DNA of 64,000 nucleotides from contig CBDCWP010000030.1 of assembly GCA_965223505.1 (NCBI GenBank), positions 96,001 to 160,000 on the forward strand, in the 5' to 3' direction. Position numbers and translations under genes: made by a program. The DNA comes from Planctomycetota bacterium (GTDB lineage: Bacteria > Planctomycetota > PLA2 > JAEUHO01). This document shows, piece by piece, positions 55,061 to 63,998 of the stretch (position 1 is the first letter of the stretch; each line of letters begins with the position of its first letter). The notes under the pieces are model-generated. The model ran no database searches. It was given only the letters and a program-made list of their open reading frames with translations, and was not told the origin of the DNA.

Positions 55061-55594
55061 ATGGCGCGCATCGTCGTCTGCGTCGGAGGAAGCATCGCGG
55101 CCTACAAGGCCTGCGACCTCGTTTCCAAGCTCGTGCAGGACGGCCATACGGTGGACGTCGTCATGACGCGCGAGGCCGGCTGGTTCGTTCGTCCGCTCGC
55201 CTTCTCCGCGCTCACACACCGCCAGGTCTTCACGGACGAGACGTGGGGTGAGGGCGACGCCCCGGCGGCGCACCTGACCGCGACGAACGACGCCGACCTG
55301 GTCGTGGTCGCGCCGTGCACCGCGAACCTGATCGGCAAGTTCGCGCACGGCATCGCCGACGACATCGTCACGTCGACGTATCTGGGCGTGGAGTGTCCCG
55401 TGCTGATCGCGCCCGCCATGAACGCCCGCATGTGGCGGCACAAACGCGTGCAGGCCAACGTCGAGACGTTGAAGGGCGACGGCGTCACCCTCGTCGGGCC
55501 CGACGAGGGCTACCTCGCGGAGGCCGAAGTGGGACCGGGCCGCATGGCGGAGCCCGGAGCCATCCGCGAAGCGATCGCGGCGCTGTCGGCGTAG
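55061..55594 (+). CDS. coaC: Stand-alone phosphopantothenoylcysteine decarboxylase (HFCD flavoprotein)
   Basis: GGSIAAYK, APCTANLIGK.AHGIADD, PAMNARMW and GPGRMAEP motifs. No CoaB domain. Confidence 0.85.
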   Translation: MARIVVCVGGSIAAYKACDLVSKLVQDGHTVDVVMTREAGWFVRPLAFSALTHRQVFTDETWGEGDAPAAHLTATNDADLVVVAPCTANLIGKFAHGIADDIVTSTYLGVECPVLIAPAMNARMWRHKRVQANVETLKGDGVTLVGPDEGYLAEAEVGPGRMAEPGAIREAIAALSA

Positions 55595-55640
55595 CAGGAA
55601 GCCGAACGGCGCTCGTGCGTTCGGCCTACACTCCTGAACG

Positions 55641-57188
55641 ATGCGAATCGGCGCCCTCGCCATCTTTTGCGGTGCGATCACACTCGGGCTCGCGCTGCAG
55701 TCGTGCGGGGACTCGGAGCCCGAAGGGCTGACCGACACCGCGCAGACGGCGCGCGAGGCAGCAAGCCGCTTTCCGGCGACGACGGGCAGCCGCATCCCCG
55801 CCGCGTTCGCGACCCAGCCGGGCACCCCTTGGGGCGACTACGTCGGGAGCGACGCGTGCAAGCAGTGTCACGAGGACGAGTATGCCAAGTGGCGCAGGTC
55901 GTTCCACAGCCGCACGCTCTTCGACGCGCTGCCGGAAACGGTCTTCGGCGCCTTCGACGGCAAGCAGCTCAAGGCCGGCAAGGGCGACAAGAAGTTCTTT
56001 TCCATCCGGCCGTACACGGAGACGGACGAACGCGGTCGTACACGCTTCTTCATGGAGATCCGCTGGCTCACGAAGTCGGAGGGCGGCGCCGGCAACATGT
56101 GGTTCGCGGAGACCTACGGGGCGCAGGAGCTGCCGGATCTCGCGCCTCGGCGGTTCGAGGTCGTCTACGCGTTCGGCAATCGCAATCACCAGCCGTACGT
56201 CGGTCGCTGGCCCGACGGCAAGCACTGGGTGATGCCGGTCATCTGGAACGACCTCGAGAAGGAGTGGAGCTTCGACGCGTTTCGGCCGTACGTGCGCGCT
56301 TGCGCGAATTGTCATACGACGGGCATCAAGAACTCGGAGACGCCCTACTACGAAGGACAGCCGCCGATCCCCCAGACCGAGCCGGCGCACTACAACCTGT
56401 CGCCGTCCGAAGAGGGCTGGGCCGAGGGCGCCGTCGGGTGCGAGAACTGTCACGGCCCCGGACGCAAGCACGTCGAGGCCGTGGAGCGCGAGGGCGTCGA
56501 GCGCTATCGGAAGCTGCGCGAGACCGACGCGAAGGGGCCGACGATCTGGGACGGTCTGACCGCGCGCAGTCCCGCGCACGTCGCGGACGCCTGCGGCCGG
56601 TGCCACAACTTCCACACCGAGAGCTCGTGCACGTGGCAGCCGACGCCCGACGGCTACGAACGCGATCCGAAGCGATGGCCGATGCACGAGCGGGCGGGGA
56701 ATCGCCACCCGTTGCTCTTCTACCGCGACGGGACGGTGCGAAGCCCCTGCGTCGTGGTGGAGGTGTTCCGACGCACGAAGATGCACGCCGAAGGCGTGAC
56801 GTGCTTCGACTGTCACGACCCGCACGGATCGAAACACTGGCCGAGCCTCACGATGCCGTCGCGCAACAACGAGCTGTGCGTCTCGTGCCACGAGGCGTTC
56901 GCGTCCATCGACGCGCAGACGGCGCATTCGCGCCACGCCGCCGGATCCTCGGGTAATCGCTGCGTCGACTGCCACATGCCTCGGATCCTCTCGTTCGCGG
57001 ACGGCGTGCACACGATGACGCGCGAGATTCCCGAACATTCGTTCTCGATTCCCACGGCCGACCGCAGACCCGGCGGACCGCCGTCCGCGTGCAACGTGTG
57101 CCACCACGATCGCGATCAAGCGTGGACGCGCCGGATGCTCCAAGAAATGTGGCCGCCCGACGAGACGGGGGACAACGAGGAGAAATAG
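55641..57188 (+). CDS. Octahaem cytochrome c lipoprotein (c554/c552-like)
   Basis: Lipobox LQSC. YVGSDACKQCH, then CANCH, CENCH, CGRCH, CFDCH, CVSCH, CVDCH and CNVCH. Confidence 0.88.
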   Translation: MRIGALAIFCGAITLGLALQSCGDSEPEGLTDTAQTAREAASRFPATTGSRIPAAFATQPGTPWGDYVGSDACKQCHEDEYAKWRRSFHSRTLFDALPETVFGAFDGKQLKAGKGDKKFFSIRPYTETDERGRTRFFMEIRWLTKSEGGAGNMWFAETYGAQELPDLAPRRFEVVYAFGNRNHQPYVGRWPDGKHWVMPVIWNDLEKEWSFDAFRPYVRACANCHTTGIKNSETPYYEGQPPIPQTEPAHYNLSPSEEGWAEGAVGCENCHGPGRKHVEAVEREGVERYRKLRETDAKGPTIWDGLTARSPAHVADACGRCHNFHTESSCTWQPTPDGYERDPKRWPMHERAGNRHPLLFYRDGTVRSPCVVVEVFRRTKMHAEGVTCFDCHDPHGSKHWPSLTMPSRNNELCVSCHEAFASIDAQTAHSRHAAGSSGNRCVDCHMPRILSFADGVHTMTREIPEHSFSIPTADRRPGGPPSACNVCHHDRDQAWTRRMLQEMWPPDETGDNEEK

Positions 57189-57243
57189 ACCCGCTCGCCG
57201 GATCGTGATGCCGCGGTGACGGGGCACCCAGACCATCCCGCGC

Positions 57244-58038
57244 GTGCGGTGGAGACTCCCGGTTGCGCTGGCGGTCCTGGTGCTGTGCGCGGGCTGCGCG
57301 AACCGGCAGCCCAAGTTCGGCGAAGAGGCGACGCTCTTCCCCAAGCCCTATCGGCTCGAGCGCGCGCTGAAGAGCGCGGCCTGCGACCCGCACGTCTGGG
57401 CGCCGACGGCCGGCGCGCTCGTCTTCGGACTCACCGGGTGGGACGACGACGTGTCCGACTGGGCCGTGCGCGAGACGCCGATCTTCGGCTCGCCGAAGGA
57501 CGCGCAGTCGATCGGCGGGGACATTCTCGACGTGACGACGTACGCCGTGCCCGTCACGGCCGTCGCGGCGAACAGCGGCACGCGACCCGGCGAGGTCGCG
57601 TGGAACAAGACGAAGGCGCTCGCGTTCCAGGCCGCCGCGTGGCAGATCAACAAGGAGATCTCCGACGAGCTGAAGACCCGTGTGAAGCGCGAGCGCCCGA
57701 GCCGCGCGAATCGCCGCAGCTTCCCCTCCGACCGCGCGTCGCGCACGTCCGTCGCGGCGGCGATGTCGCGCCGCAACCTCGACTTCGTGCGCATGGACCC
57801 GCGCTGGCGGCCCTGGGCCAAGGGCACGCTGACCGCGGCGGAGCTCGCGGTGGCCTGGTCGCGCATCGAGGCGGGCGCGCACTATCCGTCCGACGTCCTG
57901 GCCGGCATGGCCATCGGCAACTTCATCGGCGTGTTCGTCACGGACGCATTCGTGGGCCGGCCCGGCGACGCCTTCGTGCACGTCGGTCCGACGCAGGACG
58001 GTGACGGGATCCAGGCGGGCGTCAGCTTCGACCACTAG
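57244..58038 (+). CDS. PAP2-superfamily phosphatase-like lipoprotein
   Basis: K..VKRERP, SFPSD (usually SFPSGH) and SRIEAGAHYPSDVLAG motifs. Lipobox CAGC. Confidence 0.8.
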   Translation: MRWRLPVALAVLVLCAGCANRQPKFGEEATLFPKPYRLERALKSAACDPHVWAPTAGALVFGLTGWDDDVSDWAVRETPIFGSPKDAQSIGGDILDVTTYAVPVTAVAANSGTRPGEVAWNKTKALAFQAAAWQINKEISDELKTRVKRERPSRANRRSFPSDRASRTSVAAAMSRRNLDFVRMDPRWRPWAKGTLTAAELAVAWSRIEAGAHYPSDVLAGMAIGNFIGVFVTDAFVGRPGDAFVHVGPTQDGDGIQAGVSFDH

Positions 58039-58170: not shown

Positions 58171-60558
58171 ATGGCCCGTACCACCACTGCCGCTTCAGCC
58201 ACACGCACAACGCCCGAACGCGTCCAGGAGCCGATGGGACTCGAGCTCATCGGGGTGGCCATGTGCCTCGGCGGCGTGCTCGTCTCGGCCGCGATGCTCA
58301 CCCTCGGTCCGGAGGGCAGCGGGGGGAGCCTTCGCAACGTGATCGGGCCTTGGGGTCGCGGGACCGCCGACGCGCTGGCACGCGGCTTCGGACTCGGCGC
58401 GTGGATGCTGCCGATCTTCGCGGTGCTGTGGGGCGCGCGCTGCGTACGCGGCGACCAGCCGCGCAACTTCGCCCGGCGGCTGATCCTGCTGCCGGTGCTC
58501 ATGGCGCTCGTCGCGACGGCCGCGGCCTTGTTCATGCGTTCGTGCCCGTTGCCGGGTCTGGAGCGCAGCGGACCCGGCGGCTATCTCGGCGTCGCGGCCG
58601 GGCACCTCATGTACCGGGCGCTCGGCGCCGGCTCCGGTCTCGTGGCGCTCTTCGGCATCTTCGCGGTGCTGCGCCTGATCACCGACGTGAACCTCGCCCC
58701 GCTCGGGGCGCGAATCCGCGAGGCGTTCGGCCTGCGTCCGTCGACGAAGCCCCGCGAGGCGGACGTCGAGTCCGACGACGACCAGGAGTGGGAGTACGAG
58801 GACGAAGACGAGTACGGGGACGCCGACTACGAGGAGGAGTACGAGTACGAAGAGGACGAGGGCGACGAGGAGTACGAATACGAGTACGAGGACGAAGCGG
58901 AGTACGAAGAGGAGGACGAAGCGCCGGCACCCAAGACGAAGCCGGCCAAGCGTCGCAAGCGCGCCGCGCCGTTGGTCACGCCGGCTGCGCGTAAGAAGAA
59001 GAAGTCACGTCCCAAGGACCGCGGCGAGTACGTCGTCCCGTCGATCGAGCTGCTGGCCGAAGGCAGCGCGGCCGACCCGGAGGCGATTCGCGAAGAGGTC
59101 GAAGCCAACGTGCAGATCCTCGAGGAGACGTTGGCGTCGTTCGGCGTCGAAGCGCGCGTGGTGTCCAGCGTACGTGGGCCGGTCATCACGTTCTGCGAGA
59201 TCAAGGTGCCTTCGGGCATTCGATTGTCGCGCGTCACGGCCTTGGCGGACGACCTCGCCATCGCGCTCAAGGCGCCGAGCGTGCGCATCGTCGCCCCCAT
59301 CCCGGGGCGTAGCACGGTCGGCATCGAGGTGCCGAACCTGCAGCGCGACACGGTGTGCATTCGCGACCTGCTCGAGCAGAGCGGCAATGCCCTCGAGCGC
59401 AAGGCGATTCCGATCCTGTTGGGCACCGACACGTCGGGACGGCCGATCATCGAGGACCTGGCCTCCATGCCGCACCTGATGATCGCGGGCGCGACGGGCT
59501 CGGGTAAGAGCGTCTGTATCAACAGCATTCTGCTGTCGATCCTGTTCACGCGTTCGCCTGACGAGGTGAACCTGATCCTGATCGACCCGAAGCAGGTCGA
59601 GCTCTCCTTCTTCGAGGGCATCCCCCACCTGATCACGCCGGTCGTGACCGACATGAAGCGCGCCTCGAAGATTCTCGAGTGGGCGGTGGAACGGATGGAG
59701 GAGCGCTACAGCTGGCTCCTGGCCTGCGGGGTGCGCAACATCGCCGGCTACAACAAGCTCCCGAAGGAGAAGCGGGCGGAGATTCGCGAGAAGCGGGCCC
59801 TGTCGGAAGACGACCTTCCGGACCACATGCCGTACTTGACGATCATCGTGGACGAGCTGGCCGACCTGATGCTGACGAACGGCAAGGACGTCGAGCTGGC
59901 GATCACGCGTCTGGCCCAGAAGAGCCGCGCAGTCGGCATTCACATCGTGTTGGCGACGCAGCGCCCGAGCACGAACGTGATCACGGGTCTGATCAAGGCG
60001 AACATGCCGACGCGCATCGCGTTCGTCGTGTCGAGCAAGATCGACAGCCGCGTGATCCTGGACGCGAACGGCGCAGACAAGCTGCTGGGCATGGGCGACA
60101 TGCTGTACATGCACCCGCGCAGCCTGCACCTGCGGCGCGCGCAGGGGACGTTGGTGACGGACGACGAGGCGCGGTCGACGGTGGACTTCCTGAAGGGGCA
60201 GTATCCGGACGTCGAGTACGAGGACTTGCTGAAGAAGGACGCGGGCCAGCTGAACGATCCGATGGCGGAGGACGATCTGTACAACGACGCGGTGCGCGCG
60301 GTGCTCAGCTCGGGATTGGGCAGCGCGAGCATGTTGCAGCGTCGGATGGGGATCGGCTACACGCGTGCGTCACGGCTGATCGACATGATGTGCGACCGCG
60401 AGATCGTGGGTCCGCACGTGGGCAGCAAGGCGCGCGAGGTATTGGTGGATCTGGACGAGTGGGAAGCCATCCAGGCCGAGATGCAGGGCAAGGGACTGAA
60501 GGCCTCGCAGATGTACGACGAAGATGATCCGCCCTGTGTAGACGAGAGTTGGGACTAG
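58171..60558 (+). CDS. ftsK: DNA translocase FtsK
   Basis: 4TM N-domain, RIVAPIPG, PHLMIAGATGSGKS, IDPK, IVDELADLM, ATQRPS and gamma domain SASMLQRRMGIGYTRASRLID. Confidence 0.96.
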   Translation: MARTTTAASATRTTPERVQEPMGLELIGVAMCLGGVLVSAAMLTLGPEGSGGSLRNVIGPWGRGTADALARGFGLGAWMLPIFAVLWGARCVRGDQPRNFARRLILLPVLMALVATAAALFMRSCPLPGLERSGPGGYLGVAAGHLMYRALGAGSGLVALFGIFAVLRLITDVNLAPLGARIREAFGLRPSTKPREADVESDDDQEWEYEDEDEYGDADYEEEYEYEEDEGDEEYEYEYEDEAEYEEEDEAPAPKTKPAKRRKRAAPLVTPAARKKKKSRPKDRGEYVVPSIELLAEGSAADPEAIREEVEANVQILEETLASFGVEARVVSSVRGPVITFCEIKVPSGIRLSRVTALADDLAIALKAPSVRIVAPIPGRSTVGIEVPNLQRDTVCIRDLLEQSGNALERKAIPILLGTDTSGRPIIEDLASMPHLMIAGATGSGKSVCINSILLSILFTRSPDEVNLILIDPKQVELSFFEGIPHLITPVVTDMKRASKILEWAVERMEERYSWLLACGVRNIAGYNKLPKEKRAEIREKRALSEDDLPDHMPYLTIIVDELADLMLTNGKDVELAITRLAQKSRAVGIHIVLATQRPSTNVITGLIKANMPTRIAFVVSSKIDSRVILDANGADKLLGMGDMLYMHPRSLHLRRAQGTLVTDDEARSTVDFLKGQYPDVEYEDLLKKDAGQLNDPMAEDDLYNDAVRAVLSSGLGSASMLQRRMGIGYTRASRLIDMMCDREIVGPHVGSKAREVLVDLDEWEAIQAEMQGKGLKASQMYDEDDPPCVDESWD

Positions 60559-60785
60559 CGGTGCGGCGCAGTGTGGCGCGCTGCGGTGTCGGCGTCGTTG
60601 CGTAGCAGACTCCGCGGCCTCCCAGCCTCCTTGCATCGCATCCACCCTGCGCAGCCCCGTTCGGGAAGAGAGAGGGCCGGCAAGGGTGCCCCGGCCCCCA
60701 CCTGCGGCCGCAGCCGCACGAGGAGCGCTCACCCGCGGCTCCGCCCCTCAGCGTCGGGGTCCCCCACCCTTACGATCCCCCCCAC

Positions 60786-62621
60786 ATGAGCACGCGCCGC
60801 CTCATCCCGGGCTTCATCGCTCCCGGTCTGGTCCTGACGCTGATCGCCGTCCAGATCGCGTTCGGTGTGCGCGGCTTCGACAACCCCAAGGGCGGATTCG
60901 CCGCCGTACTCGAGCTCCCCGGCGTCATCGCAGGCTGGGGCGGCATTCTCTTCCTCTTCCCTGTGCTCGTCTGGCTCGTTCTCGACTGGTGGGGCTTCGC
61001 GCCCAGCAGCTTCGCCCTGCGCGCCCTCGGCGCCGGCGCCCTCGCACTCGCCGCCGGCTCGCTCTTCGCGCTCTTCGGCGGCGAAGCATTCGGCGGATCC
61101 GTCGGCGCCGGTCTCGCCGCGCTGCTCGAGGACACCGTCGGCTTCCCGATCGCGATCTGCGTGCTGGCCGCCATGGCGGTCCCCGGCCTCATCCTTGCCT
61201 TCGCCGGTTTCGGCGGGGCCGGCGGCGCGAAGCGTCCCGCTCCGAAGCCGGTGCTGCAACAGACGCCGGCACAGAGCGACGCCGTCGTGGAACGCAAGCC
61301 GCTCTTCGGGTTCATGCGGCCGAAGAAGAAGGTCTCCAACCTGGCCGACCTCGTGCGCGACGCCCCCAAGGCGAAACGCAAGCCGGGCGAGCCCTGGTAC
61401 CCGTCGCAGCAATTCAGCGAAGAAGGCGACGAGGTGCCGATGGACTTCGACGGCGCCCGCGACGTCGGCGGCATTCGCTTCGTGGACGATCCCGAACCGG
61501 AAGACGTAGTCGAAGAAGCGGCGCCGGACAGCGAGACCGCCCTCGAGGACGAAGCCGACGCGATCGAGCCCGAAGAGGAACCGGAAGGTCGTCTGCACGT
61601 CGACGGCAACGGAGCCGAGGTCGTCGTCGCGGAGGTCGTCGGCGCGCCCGCGGTGGAACCCGAAACCGTCGGCGACGCGCCGGCCCCTTTCGATCTCGAT
61701 CCGGTCGACGACGACGAGGAACCGGCGCCCGCGCCCAAGCGCAAGCCGGACGCTTCGTGGGACAAGCTCGAGGACGAAGCAGAGGACGAGCCGCTGCCGC
61801 CGGGCGTGCGCTACGCAGAGCCGGCGCCGGCCGCGCAAGCACCCGCCCCGGACACCTCGGACAACGGCGAGGGCGAGGAGTCGGTCGAGGCGCTCGACGA
61901 CGAGGACGAAGCCCTGCACGAGCTGATGCGCGGCACGCCGCCGGCGGCGCAGCCGCCCATCCACACGAGCCGCGAGGTGCGGGAATCGATGCGCAACACC
62001 CTCTTGCCCGAGCAGATGCAGGAGGCCAGCCGGCGCTACCTCAAGAAGCTCGAGTCGTCGGGCATCTTCGACTTCCTGGAAGAGGACGAGGAACCGGCGG
62101 CCAAGAAGCCGGCCGCGAAACGCAAGAAGGCCGCCAAGAAGCCGGCGGCAAAGAAGAAGAAAGCCGCGAAGAAGAAGGCGGCACGAAAGCCCGCGGCCAA
62201 GCGGAGCGCCAAGAAGAGCGCGAAGAAGAAGGCCGCCAAGAAGAGCGCCAGGCGCAAGACGGCGGCGCGCCGTACGACGGCGCCGAAGAAGGCCCCGGAC
62301 AAGGGCGCGCCGTCGAAACACCGCTTCCAGGCGACCGGCGAGAGCTCCGAGGAGATCGCCGCGTCGCTCGGGATCTCCGTGGACATGCACCGTCGTCTAT
62401 CGCGCGAGAGCGTCGAGCCGCTGTTCGCACAGGCGGTCGAGATCGCACTCGAGCGCGGTGCGGCTTCTCCCGTGCTACTCACGCGCCGCATGGGCATCGG
62501 CTTCACGGGCGCCAAGAAGCTCGTGCAGCGTCTGGTCGAGGCCGGCGTGCTGGGCGACATGAACGTGAACGGCTCGCACCCGACACGACTCACACGCGAG
62601 GTCTGGGAGCACGTTACGTAG
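60786..62621 (+). CDS. Motor-less FtsK paralogue: FtsK-like TM domain, acidic linker, histone H1-like Lys/Ala tract, FtsK gamma domain
   Basis: TM motif GGSVGAGL versus GGYLGVAA in ftsK. AAKK repeats. C-terminal LFAQAVEIALERGAASPVLLTRRMGIGF..A..L...L.EAGVLG. No Walker A/B. Confidence 0.8.
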   Translation: MSTRRLIPGFIAPGLVLTLIAVQIAFGVRGFDNPKGGFAAVLELPGVIAGWGGILFLFPVLVWLVLDWWGFAPSSFALRALGAGALALAAGSLFALFGGEAFGGSVGAGLAALLEDTVGFPIAICVLAAMAVPGLILAFAGFGGAGGAKRPAPKPVLQQTPAQSDAVVERKPLFGFMRPKKKVSNLADLVRDAPKAKRKPGEPWYPSQQFSEEGDEVPMDFDGARDVGGIRFVDDPEPEDVVEEAAPDSETALEDEADAIEPEEEPEGRLHVDGNGAEVVVAEVVGAPAVEPETVGDAPAPFDLDPVDDDEEPAPAPKRKPDASWDKLEDEAEDEPLPPGVRYAEPAPAAQAPAPDTSDNGEGEESVEALDDEDEALHELMRGTPPAAQPPIHTSREVRESMRNTLLPEQMQEASRRYLKKLESSGIFDFLEEDEEPAAKKPAAKRKKAAKKPAAKKKKAAKKKAARKPAAKRSAKKSAKKKAAKKSARRKTAARRTTAPKKAPDKGAPSKHRFQATGESSEEIAASLGISVDMHRRLSRESVEPLFAQAVEIALERGAASPVLLTRRMGIGFTGAKKLVQRLVEAGVLGDMNVNGSHPTRLTREVWEHVT

Positions 62622-62633
62622 CGCTCATCCCCG

Positions 62634-63998
62634 CTAGGGCGGGTTGCCGGAGCTGTCGGGCGGCGGCGTAGCCGGCGGCTGCGCGGGCGGCGTAGGTGGT
62701 TGCGCCGGCGGTGCGGGCGAGGGTGGTTGCGCAGGCGGCGCGGCTGCCGGGGATTGACCGGGCGCGGCGGCGGCCGGGGGTTGCGCGGGTTGAGCCGGCG
62801 CAGCCGGCGGCGTGGGCTGCGGCGCGCGCGCGGCGAGCTGCGCTTCGACGGGCGCGATGATGTGTTGCTGCAACCCGGCGATCGCTTCCTCCGGCGCGTT
62901 GTACTGGAAGACCTCCAGCACCCACGGGTAGCGCTGCAGATGCTCGAACATCGCGTACTCGGAGTCGACGTTCGCCTGCAGGATCGGCTTGACCGGCACC
63001 GAGGGCAGCGCGGGGACGATCGCCATCAGCTCCTGCGGGATGCTGCGGGGTTCCGTCAGGTCCGCGATGATGAAGCGCGCCATGTGCGCGAGCGTCGAGA
63101 TGGTCTCCGTGAGGTCCCGCTGCGTCGGCTTGTCGAAGTCGAAGATGATCGGGAGGTAGTCGTGCTTGCGCAGCTCCACCCGGAGCGCGTCCAGCACCGA
63201 TTTTCGCGCCTCGGAGAAGCGGCCCAGGATCAGGACGACCTTCGAGGTGATGGTGTCGATGACGCCGCGAATGGCCTGGTTGTTGAGCAACAGGTAGATG
63301 AACTGGCCGATCTCGAGGTTGTCGACGTTGATCGTCGGCTGATCCTCGGGGGTGACGATCATGTTCGCCTGTTGGGTCCCGGTGAGGTTCACGTCCCAGA
63401 CGGAGGCGCCGTACACCCGCGCCCCGGAAAGGACGGCGTTCTCGAAGTTCACGCGCGCTGCGCGCATGTACTGCAGGTCCGTCCGCGACAGATCCGTACC
63501 GACGAACAGCGTGTCCTTGAGCACGCACGCCTCGAGCTCCGCGCCGGAGAGCTTGGCGCCTGAGAGATCGGCCGAGTCGAAGTAGCAGCGCTCGAGGATG
63601 GCGCCCTCGAGATTGGCGTTCACCAGCGTCGCTTCCGTGAAGTCCGACTGGCTGAGATCCGCGCCGGCCAGATTCGCGCCGTCCAGCTTGGCACGCTCGA
63701 ACTTCACCGCGTTGAGCTGCGCGCCGCGCATCACCGCTTGCGTGAGGTCCGCATCGATCAGCACCGCCTCACGCAGTACGGCCTGGGTCAGCAACGCCTC
63801 GCGCATGTCCGCGCCTTCGAGGACGGCCTCCACGAGCATTCCGCCTTCGAGATCGACCTTGGCGAGCTGCGCGTTGGTGAGATCCGCTCGATACAGGCTG
63901 GCGCCGTCCAGGTCGACGCCGGCGAGATCGGCGCCGCTCAGGCTGGCGTGACCGAGGTTGGCGTCGACCAGCGACGCGCCCGTGAAGTCGGCATCGCT
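62634..63998 (-). CDS. Pentapeptide-repeat protein with C-terminal alpha/beta (TIR/NDT-like) domain and Pro/Ala tail (5' truncated)
   Basis: A(D/N)Lxx repeats, with the frame open to the window end. C-domain VLILGRF...FIIADLT.PRSIPQEL. Confidence 0.85.
   Translation of the reverse strand, partial: SDADFTGASLVDANLGHASLSGADLAGVDLDGASLYRADLTNAQLAKVDLEGGMLVEAVLEGADMREALLTQAVLREAVLIDADLTQAVMRGAQLNAVKFERAKLDGANLAGADLSQSDFTEATLVNANLEGAILERCYFDSADLSGAKLSGAELEACVLKDTLFVGTDLSRTDLQYMRAARVNFENAVLSGARVYGASVWDVNLTGTQQANMIVTPEDQPTINVDNLEIGQFIYLLLNNQAIRGVIDTITSKVVLILGRFSEARKSVLDALRVELRKHDYLPIIFDFDKPTQRDLTETISTLAHMARFIIADLTEPRSIPQELMAIVPALPSVPVKPILQANVDSEYAMFEHLQRYPWVLEVFQYNAPEEAIAGLQQHIIAPVEAQLAARAPQPTPPAAPAQPAQPPAAAAPGQSPAAAPPAQPPSPAPPAQPPTPPAQPPATPPPDSSGNPP

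Follow-up and report, generated by a model that had tools for sequence, protein, structure and literature searches.

A conserved motor-less FtsK paralogue encoded beside ftsK in an FtsZ-less planctomycete lineage, a candidate membrane-anchored DNA-binding partner of FtsK

Introduction

The C-terminal gamma domain of FtsK is a DNA-binding winged helix (PMC5052618, PMC2680272). Reading of the FtsK-orienting polar sequences (KOPS) was assigned to residues R1300, E1303, and E1306 (PMC2680272; Escherichia coli numbering here and below), and residues 1288–1297 of E. coli FtsK were described as a surface touching both XerD and KOPS DNA, with R1289 as the critical residue (PMC5052618). A peptide of nine residues (1289–1297) was reported to be enough for activation of recombination in E. 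coli (PMC5052618, Table 1). Here we describe a gene for an FtsK-like protein without the motor, located directly after ftsK in a 64,000-nucleotide stretch (hereafter the window) of a Planctomycetota bacterium (assembly GCA_965223505.1, contig CBDCWP010000030.1). An earlier reading made from the letters of the window alone (hereafter the sequence-only reading) had proposed its product as a candidate tether between membrane and nucleoid.

The FtsK/SpoIIIE proteins of E. coli and Pseudomonas aeruginosa, and the FtsK encoded in the window itself, resemble this paralogue in a long low-complexity linker, in a gamma domain of the same fold at the C-terminus, and probably, by no more than remote homology, in their four-helix N-terminal membrane domain; the paralogue is encoded beside a real ftsK. 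It differs from them in the absence of the alpha/beta motor, in having K, Q, and V at the positions of R1300, E1303, and E1306, and in the addition of a lysine/alanine (Lys/Ala)-rich tract. Motor-less paralogues in other planctomycete families, found in the course of this work, have in common with it the position after ftsK, the order of transmembrane (TM) region, acidic linker, and gamma, the lack of a motor, and homologous N-termini (hhalign probability 95%). Unlike the window's family, they lack a Lys tract (0/11) and their linkers are strongly acidic throughout, several of them score with FtsK_4TM, and they are without the motifs YP..IRFAD, GVRYAD, and KLEASGIFD.

Known linkers of membrane and chromosome at the division site are Noc of Bacillus subtilis and the MatP-ZapB-ZapA Ter linkage of E. 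coli, both of which recognise particular sites and require a divisome built on FtsZ. The paralogue would resemble these in its proposed job only, i.e., DNA held at the membrane or division apparatus without movement; there is no sequence or fold relation, FtsZ was not found here, and sequence-specific reading is unlikely. Non-specific DNA binding is known from the Lys/Ala-rich tails of bacterial H1-like proteins, further examples of such Lys/Ala-rich DNA-binding segments being the tail of mycobacterial HupB and Pseudomonas AlgP. Residues 436–510 of the paralogue resemble H1-like proteins (chlamydial Hc2, the Burkholderia H1-like protein) in composition and repeat style (AAKK/PAAK), with weak matches to the models NF038053, NF038052, and HC2, but they form an internal module of a membrane protein and not a soluble nucleoid protein. 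As a precedent for activation of XerD without a translocase, XafT has been described (PMC6744903, PMC9226527); it is relevant because the equivalent of R1289 is conserved in the paralogue, although XafT, in these accounts, is a small soluble phage protein.

Results and discussion

An intact gene without the FtsK motor

As the sequence-only reading had described, the paralogue is encoded by an intact open reading frame (ORF) directly after ftsK. The ORF has 611 aa plus stop, is on the same strand as the 795-aa ftsK, and is separated from it by 227 nt from stop to start (Table 1). The only Pfam family to score was FtsK_gamma. None of the motor families scored, the alpha/beta motor (PF17854, PF01580) was absent both from the window paralogue and from 16/16 family members, and the Walker A motif G.TGSGKS was not found; lacking these, the protein cannot pump DNA. 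The outcome foreseen for a profile scan was therefore obtained for FtsK_gamma (present) and FtsK_SpoIIIE (absent), whereas the expected FtsK_4TM match did not appear.

The GC content at third codon positions (GC3) of the paralogue was 0.876, close to that of ftsK (0.897), and a full-length query gave matches without internal stops in 24/24 other genomes of the family. Together these identify it as a live gene, in agreement with the earlier view that it is not a decaying copy. In 16/25 family genomes (the window's included) it immediately follows ftsK and shares its strand. In three of the non-adjacent cases it is on the same contig, 2.4–24 kb from ftsK, and in the other six, all fragmented assemblies, it is on another contig; other assemblies share the architecture. 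The paralogue and FtsK carry the only two gamma domains of the 5.15-Mb, 92%-complete genome. FtsZ was not found in this 92%-complete genome, in line with the FtsZ-less host presumed earlier, while the control search was positive in 13/14 reference genomes. A conserved motor-less FtsK paralogue, genetically linked to ftsK, is firmly established in this FtsZ-less lineage.

A C-terminal gamma winged helix with an altered recognition surface

The C-terminal gamma winged helix was recovered by profile, sequence, and structure comparison alike. FtsK_gamma (PF09397) matched aa 543–596 (62412-62573) at 35.8 bits (cut-off 30.6), and phmmer of the PDB returned 2j5o (2e-5) and 2j5p (2.2e-5). In Foldseek against the PDB, all of ranks 1–10 were gamma chains of FtsK from E. 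coli or P. aeruginosa (target TM-score 0.76–0.86, root-mean-square deviation 1.3–2.4 A, 59–64 columns), with E-values from 9e-3 only, since the whole 611-aa model had served as query. In this AlphaFold2 (AF2) model, based on a 16-sequence family alignment and with a mean predicted local distance difference test score (pLDDT) of 61.4, residues 520–611 reached pLDDT 90–97. Within the family, FtsK_gamma matched 15/16 members, and gamma was present in 18/19 members with complete C-termini.

The alteration of the gamma helix noted in the sequence-only reading was exact for both quoted loops, TRRMGIGFTG at aa 566 of the paralogue and QRRMGIGYTR at aa 723 of FtsK. In a gapless alignment to E. coli 2j5p, T566/R567 correspond to 1288/1289, G575 to 1297, K578 to 1300, Q581 to 1303, and V584 to 1306; the last three positions are occupied by R, D, and C in the FtsK of the window. 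Since none of the 15 family paralogues has Arg at 1300 (Table 2), FtsK-type KOPS reading is very unlikely in the family, and the known role of gamma as a KOPS reader, to which the sequence-only reading appealed, does not transfer to this protein, in which 1300 is Lys and E1303/E1306 are Gln/Val. The equivalent of R1289 is the only strictly conserved mapped residue, which fits either a DNA backbone contact or a protein contact. The wing of the paralogue gamma (GDMNVNGSH, aa 589–598, next to the aa 579–587 region at 62520-62546) is nearer to that of P. aeruginosa FtsK (TPMNTNGSR) than to that of its own FtsK (GPHVGSKAR).

Table 2. Conservation of mapped gamma positions (planctomycete FtsK, n = 17; family paralogues, n = 15; other-family paralogues, n = 11)
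Position	FtsK	Family paralogues	Other-family paralogues
Q1288	17	0 (T/S/A)	11
R1289	16	15	10
G1294	17	5	5
Y1295	17	11 (Y or F)	9 (Y or F)
R1297	17	8	3
R1300	17	0 (one Lys, the window's)	6
D/E1303	17	9	8

A strongly diverged membrane domain

Hydropathy peaks were located at about aa 10–28, 47–65, 80–98, and 122–140, and AF2 placed helices at 7–29, 50–68, 74–98, 100–118, and 120–139. The modelled membrane helices had pLDDT 50–91, with TM3 and TM4 at 85–91. The FtsK-like TM region claimed earlier held with respect to the four predicted helices, but a direct match to FtsK_4TM (PF13491) was not obtained for the paralogue at E<=1, and only 1/16 family members gave a match (E=4.3). When the N-terminus of the family was compared directly, by hhalign, with FtsK N-termini from 24 related genomes, the score was likewise only 18.7 (P=0.036; reversed controls 17.9 and 17.4).

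The other-family paralogues provided the connection. The family N-terminus aligned with 11 other-family paralogue N-termini over 110 columns (probability 95.1%, E 3.2e-8; reversed controls 10.0 and 13.1), and these in turn aligned with FtsK N-termini (probability 91.6%, E 8.3e-7; reversed controls 15.8 and 13.3). Among the same 11, one exceeded the Pfam cut-off for FtsK_4TM (32.4 bits) and four more matched at E 5e-4 to 0.045. The family N-terminal profile also matched a true FtsK of 867 aa, from another family, in its 4TM region (E=9.6e-7). We conclude that the membrane domain of the paralogue is probably a strongly diverged FtsK 4TM, with homology supported only transitively.

Cytoplasmic motifs, acidic linker, and Lys/Ala tract

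The family alignment (16 sequences) contained 32 invariant columns, all within aa 13–428 and none in gamma. The conserved cytoplasmic element (aa 201–235) holds the invariant residues Y205, P206, G214, E216, P218, G228, and R231. Its part 201–227 was modelled as short paired strands (pLDDT 77–83), and the exhaustive HMMER search described below confined the element to the window's subfamily. Invariant in the linker were L337, R342, K421, L422, G426, and F428. Three motifs are specific to the family: YP..F..G.E.P…G.IR, L..G.R (LPPGVRYAE in the window), and KL...G.F (KLESSGIF in the window). The pattern G-[VI]-R-[FYW]-[AV]-[DE] occurs twice in the window protein, at aa 229 (61470-61487) and aa 340 (61803-61820), with several further copies in the acidic linker of the relatives P0011 and L014, and looks like a repeated docking motif for some partner.

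The acidic linker and the Lys/Ala tract were both modelled at pLDDT <50 and are predicted to be disordered. Both had been reported earlier and are present, the tract being slightly wider (62091-62315) than the 62097-62291 first given. The DNA at 62094-62250 is made up of degenerate tandem repeats (period 33, 15, and 12), which suggests that the tract arose through repeat expansion. Of the 19 distinct family members with complete C-termini, 14 had a stretch of 60 aa with 19 Lys or more; 3/19 had a weaker basic tract (9–10 Lys plus Arg) and 2/19, both of one genus, had none. In the 11 other-family paralogues the maximum was 1–5 Lys per 60 aa, the tract was absent (0/11), and the linker was uniformly acidic without a basic block (11/11). 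The net charge from the TM region to gamma ranged from -15 to +26 in 13/16 family members, in a count that missed the basic tract of a gamma-less member because it fell in the excluded tail, vs. -30 to -142 in 11/11 other-family paralogues. To judge from these sequences, the Lys/Ala tract is a new feature of the window's family, i.e., a lineage-specific addition.

One orthologue, from a related genus (L009:1462-3126, genome G001), ends right after the Lys-rich tract, without gamma, whereas the tract-less members L007 and L008 retain gamma. No family member is therefore without a candidate DNA-binding module, a pattern drawn from a small sample of related members. The gene following the gamma-less orthologue resembles a radical-SAM methylthiotransferase, and ftsK of G001 is not adjacent but about 9 kb away.

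Distribution and age of the duplication

Beyond the family, the full-length query matched 1/11 sister-family genomes, in the FtsK gamma only. In a phylum-wide sample, the N-terminal profile was found in at least 15/16 family genomes and gave three weak matches in the other 378, counts that are floors since the search was a stricter first look. An exhaustive HMMER search of 1.84 billion representatives returned 65 proteins at E<=1e-3, 42 of them at E<=1e-10; the matches comprising the cytoplasmic element alone look like 5'-truncated fragments of the same family. The 17 named relatives were all metagenome-assembled genomes, with no cultured carrier among them; 16 were labelled Planctomycetota, Planctomycetia, or Planctomycetales and one, a weak match of 41 residues, Aequorivita. 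In public annotation, at least one member is named 'DNA translocase FtsK', and the JGI label of a relative gives the two domains. The nearest protein-atlas clusters were three unnamed Planctomycetota clusters carrying FtsK_gamma (scores 0.90–0.92).

FtsK_gamma was detected in 378/401 sampled planctomycete genomes, and about 103 of the sampled genomes had at least two gamma matches by hand count. This number is an upper estimate because at least two of the second matches are unrelated Fic-domain proteins: the second gamma matches of the sister family were rejected as paralogues, being Fic-domain proteins (HPFLDGNGR) with a C-terminal winged helix (L109:457-1722 of G028, and a 382-aa frame on the minus strand of L110 in G029) that scored 27.8 and 26 bits, below the FtsK_gamma cut-off. 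Genomes with two gammas clustered by family (12/12, 8/8, 8/8, and 5/5 in four families vs. 0/20 in another). Ten other two-gamma families were sampled at one genome each, and a member from an eleventh was found by chance. In 9/10 of the genomes so sampled the second gamma followed that of FtsK at a distance of 1.9–3 kb, without a change of strand, and 11/11 of the paralogues combined a TM region with a long acidic linker and, at the C-terminus, a gamma above the cut-off, with motor families in 0/11. The linkage to ftsK extends past the window's family.

A gamma-domain tree (36 rows, 70 columns) was poorly resolved. End branches were 0.18–1.9 for paralogues and 0–0.87, mostly <0.45, for FtsKs, and no supported pairing joined a paralogue gamma to FtsK from the same genome. 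In the approximately unbiased (AU) test, a grouping of family paralogues with family FtsKs was rejected (p=0.006), and the duplication therefore predates the window's family; a single clade of all paralogue gammas was not rejected (p=0.239, on the same poorly resolved 70-column tree). Such an old duplication with a patchy distribution implies losses or transfer. The motor-less paralogue group is widespread in Planctomycetota and undescribed: no description of a motor-less FtsK paralogue or of a planctomycete H1-like membrane protein was found in the literature searched, which left most subscription journals outside. In Planctopirus limnophila, transposon insertion indices of 0.074 and 0.119 were reported for ftsK-adjacent genes vs. 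0.0016 for ftsK (PMC10632474); as these genes may or may not be paralogues, the values carry no weight here.

A possible role beside FtsK

The paralogue is a non-translocating descendant of an old ftsK duplicate, which lost the whole alpha/beta ATPase motor while keeping a four-helix anchor, probably a strongly diverged FtsK 4TM, a long acidic disordered linker, the gamma winged helix, and, in many families, its place beside ftsK. In one uncultured family the 75-residue Lys/Ala tract was added just before gamma, apparently by repeat expansion. In the mode of action that we favour, the protein would sit in the cytoplasmic membrane, where its FtsK-type membrane domain would probably keep it at the division site, close to FtsK or in company with it, and a flexible linker of about 400 residues would hold out a bipartite DNA-binding end. 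Of this end, the Lys/Ala tract may bind DNA electrostatically, with no sequence preference, and the winged helix, its KOPS-reading arginine being lost, may add contacts to a protein or, non-specifically, to DNA. Chromosomal DNA would in this way be held at the membrane where FtsK works, without pumping. We tentatively read the paralogue as such a membrane-anchored, non-specific DNA-binding partner that holds chromosomal DNA near FtsK, with a probability of roughly 0.45.

Several observations weigh against this reading. In the sister family of the same order, no paralogue followed ftsK in 5/5 genomes and the N-terminal profile found one in 0/6 (a floor count); with the gene absent where examined, the paralogue appears dispensable in close relatives. 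The winged helix may no longer bind DNA at all, given the loss of R1300 and the decay of G1294 (5/15) and R1297 (8/15). Co-assembly with FtsK is purely what we infer. The histone H1-like character ascribed to the tract stood as far as composition goes, and Pfam HC2 (PF07382) matched 5/16 family members (best E 1.3e-4); the curated H1-like models, however, scored far under their cut-offs (NF038053 and NF038052; 22.5 bits vs. 80 and 20.5 vs. 135), so that the likeness is compositional only, and it is lacking in all 11 other-family paralogues. Since the linker of the wider family is acidic (-30 to -142) with no basic block, charge-based DNA tethering is unlikely to have been the ancestral role, and a lineage-specific tract does not explain the wider family. 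The basic tract could, moreover, pair with the protein's own acidic block. The further step, in which the FtsK-derived adaptor became by virtue of its Lys/Ala tail a true membrane-to-nucleoid tether that holds or locally compacts DNA, as a counterpart of the Ter linkage or Noc in FtsZ-less division, seems to us rather unlikely.

If gamma was kept for protein contact and not for DNA, the paralogue might be an adaptor or Xer regulator, activating or sequestering a Xer recombinase at the membrane without translocation, or engaging another partner, with the tract only raising DNA proximity. The equivalent of R1289, described as forming a critical salt bridge to XerD in E. coli (PMC5052618), was kept in 15/15 family paralogues and 10/11 others, the window paralogue is identical to its own FtsK at 7/9 positions of the E. 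coli peptide (1289–1297) reported to activate recombination (PMC5052618), and stand-alone Xer activation factors exist, as reported for XafT of a Vibrio satellite phage. The genome also encodes two strong XerC/D-like proteins (306.8 and 300.6 bits to the XerD model, equivalog cut-off 329.6). The rest of the activating surface is variable, however (G1294 in 5/15, R1297 in 8/15), and at the positions of the XerD acidic pair E183/E184 one recombinase reads E-H and the other G-P, with E119, Q123, and I127 replaced in both, so the salt-bridge logic of E. coli is not simply transferable. Because R1289 was reported to contact DNA as well (PMC5052618), its conservation cannot separate a DNA from a protein reading, and we consider a Xer or other protein adaptor unlikely. 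About as doubtful is a division scaffold or FtsK regulator acting through its membrane domain, either by joining the FtsK membrane-domain oligomer or by recruiting division proteins through the linker motifs, with DNA binding secondary. In its favour, the membrane domain and three short cytoplasmic motifs are the best-conserved parts and gamma is not, the paralogue gamma branches are several-fold longer than those of FtsK gammas, and one orthologue does without gamma altogether. Retention of gamma in 18/19 complete family members and 11/11 other paralogues nevertheless argues that it matters, and linker motifs confined to one family do not explain the wider paralogue.

The segregation of charge along the chain (-46 over aa 236–435, then +32 over aa 436–510) raises the option that the acidic and Lys/Ala blocks pair within or between molecules, so that either the DNA-binding end is masked until a signal arrives or a membrane-attached condensate forms at the division site. 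Both blocks are predicted to be disordered, and the basic block brings the family linker near neutral; yet this argument from composition alone does not distinguish pairing from simple DNA binding, two family members have no basic block, and we hold such a polyampholyte to be improbable. That the gene is a decaying or non-functional ftsK duplicate is hardly credible. The loss of the motor and the degenerate recognition helix of gamma would be in keeping with decay, but the frame is intact with a GC3 of 0.876, orthologues are open in 24/24 family genomes with no internal stops, the motifs outside gamma are invariant, and the AU test puts the duplication before the family. The pseudogene reading was rejected on this conservation.

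Features of the locus and neighbouring genes

The features of the locus are listed in Table 1. A scan of 60300-62900 found no sigma-70-like promoter and no intrinsic terminator, a result that is uninformative if host promoters differ. The ftsK linker contains, at 58768-58923, a Glu/Asp/Tyr-rich stretch of the EYEYE type derived from degenerate tandem repeats (period 6, 18, and 45) and followed by a short Lys/Arg patch, an acidic-then-basic order like that of the paralogue on a smaller scale. At the ftsK loci of G005:C20, G016:C5, and G019:C66, open frames of 1203, 1317, and 1424 aa were seen vs. about 800–930 aa in other relatives; these could be N-terminal extensions or merely open upstream frames in GC-rich DNA.

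Convergent with the paralogue lies a gene for a pentapeptide-repeat protein (62634-63998, minus strand; 131 bits with Pfam Pentapeptide) whose C-terminal tail is rich in Pro and Ala, the two stop codons being 12 bases apart. The genes upstream of ftsK (55061-58038) have no evident tie to it; they encode a flavoprotein-family protein (106 bits), a PAP2-family phosphatase, and, with several CXXCH families, a multihaem c-type cytochrome of 515 aa.

Table 1. Coordinates of the ftsK–paralogue locus in the window
Feature	Position	Strand	Basis
Full-length ftsK, upstream partner gene	58171..60558	+	FtsK_4TM 50.3, FtsK_alpha 101.6, FtsK_SpoIIIE 213.4, FtsK_gamma 80.8 bits (Pfam)
ftsK–paralogue intergenic spacer, 227 nt	60559..60785	+	
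Motor-less FtsK paralogue	60786..62621	+	ORF; orthologues in same family
Membrane domain, aa 1-145, four predicted TM helices	60786..61220	+	hydropathy, AF2, hhalign
Juxtamembrane basic segment, aa 146-200, net +10, predicted disordered	61221..61385	+	composition, AF2
Conserved cytoplasmic element, aa 201-235 (WYP..F..G.E.PMDF..RDVGGIRF)	61386..61490	+	alignment, AF2
Acidic linker, aa 236-435, 22 D + 38 E, net -46, predicted disordered	61491..62090	+	composition; pLDDT mostly <50
Linker motif LPPGVRYAE	61794-61820	+	conserved short motif
Linker motif RYLKKLESSGIFDF	62034-62075	+	conserved short motif
Lys/Ala-rich 'H1-like' tract, aa 436-510, 27 K + 7 R + 24 A, net +32	62091..62315	+	composition; predicted disordered
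Folded C-terminal domain, aa 520-611, two extra helices + gamma winged helix	62343..62618	+	AF2, Pfam, Foldseek

Significance

The annotation 'DNA translocase FtsK' is misleading for a motor-less protein. The window's family, whose members differ in whether they carry the Lys/Ala tract and whether they carry gamma, constitutes a natural experiment on these modules. As a conserved, undescribed paralogue beside ftsK in about a quarter of the sampled planctomycete genomes, the protein is a candidate part of the planctomycete division and segregation machinery.

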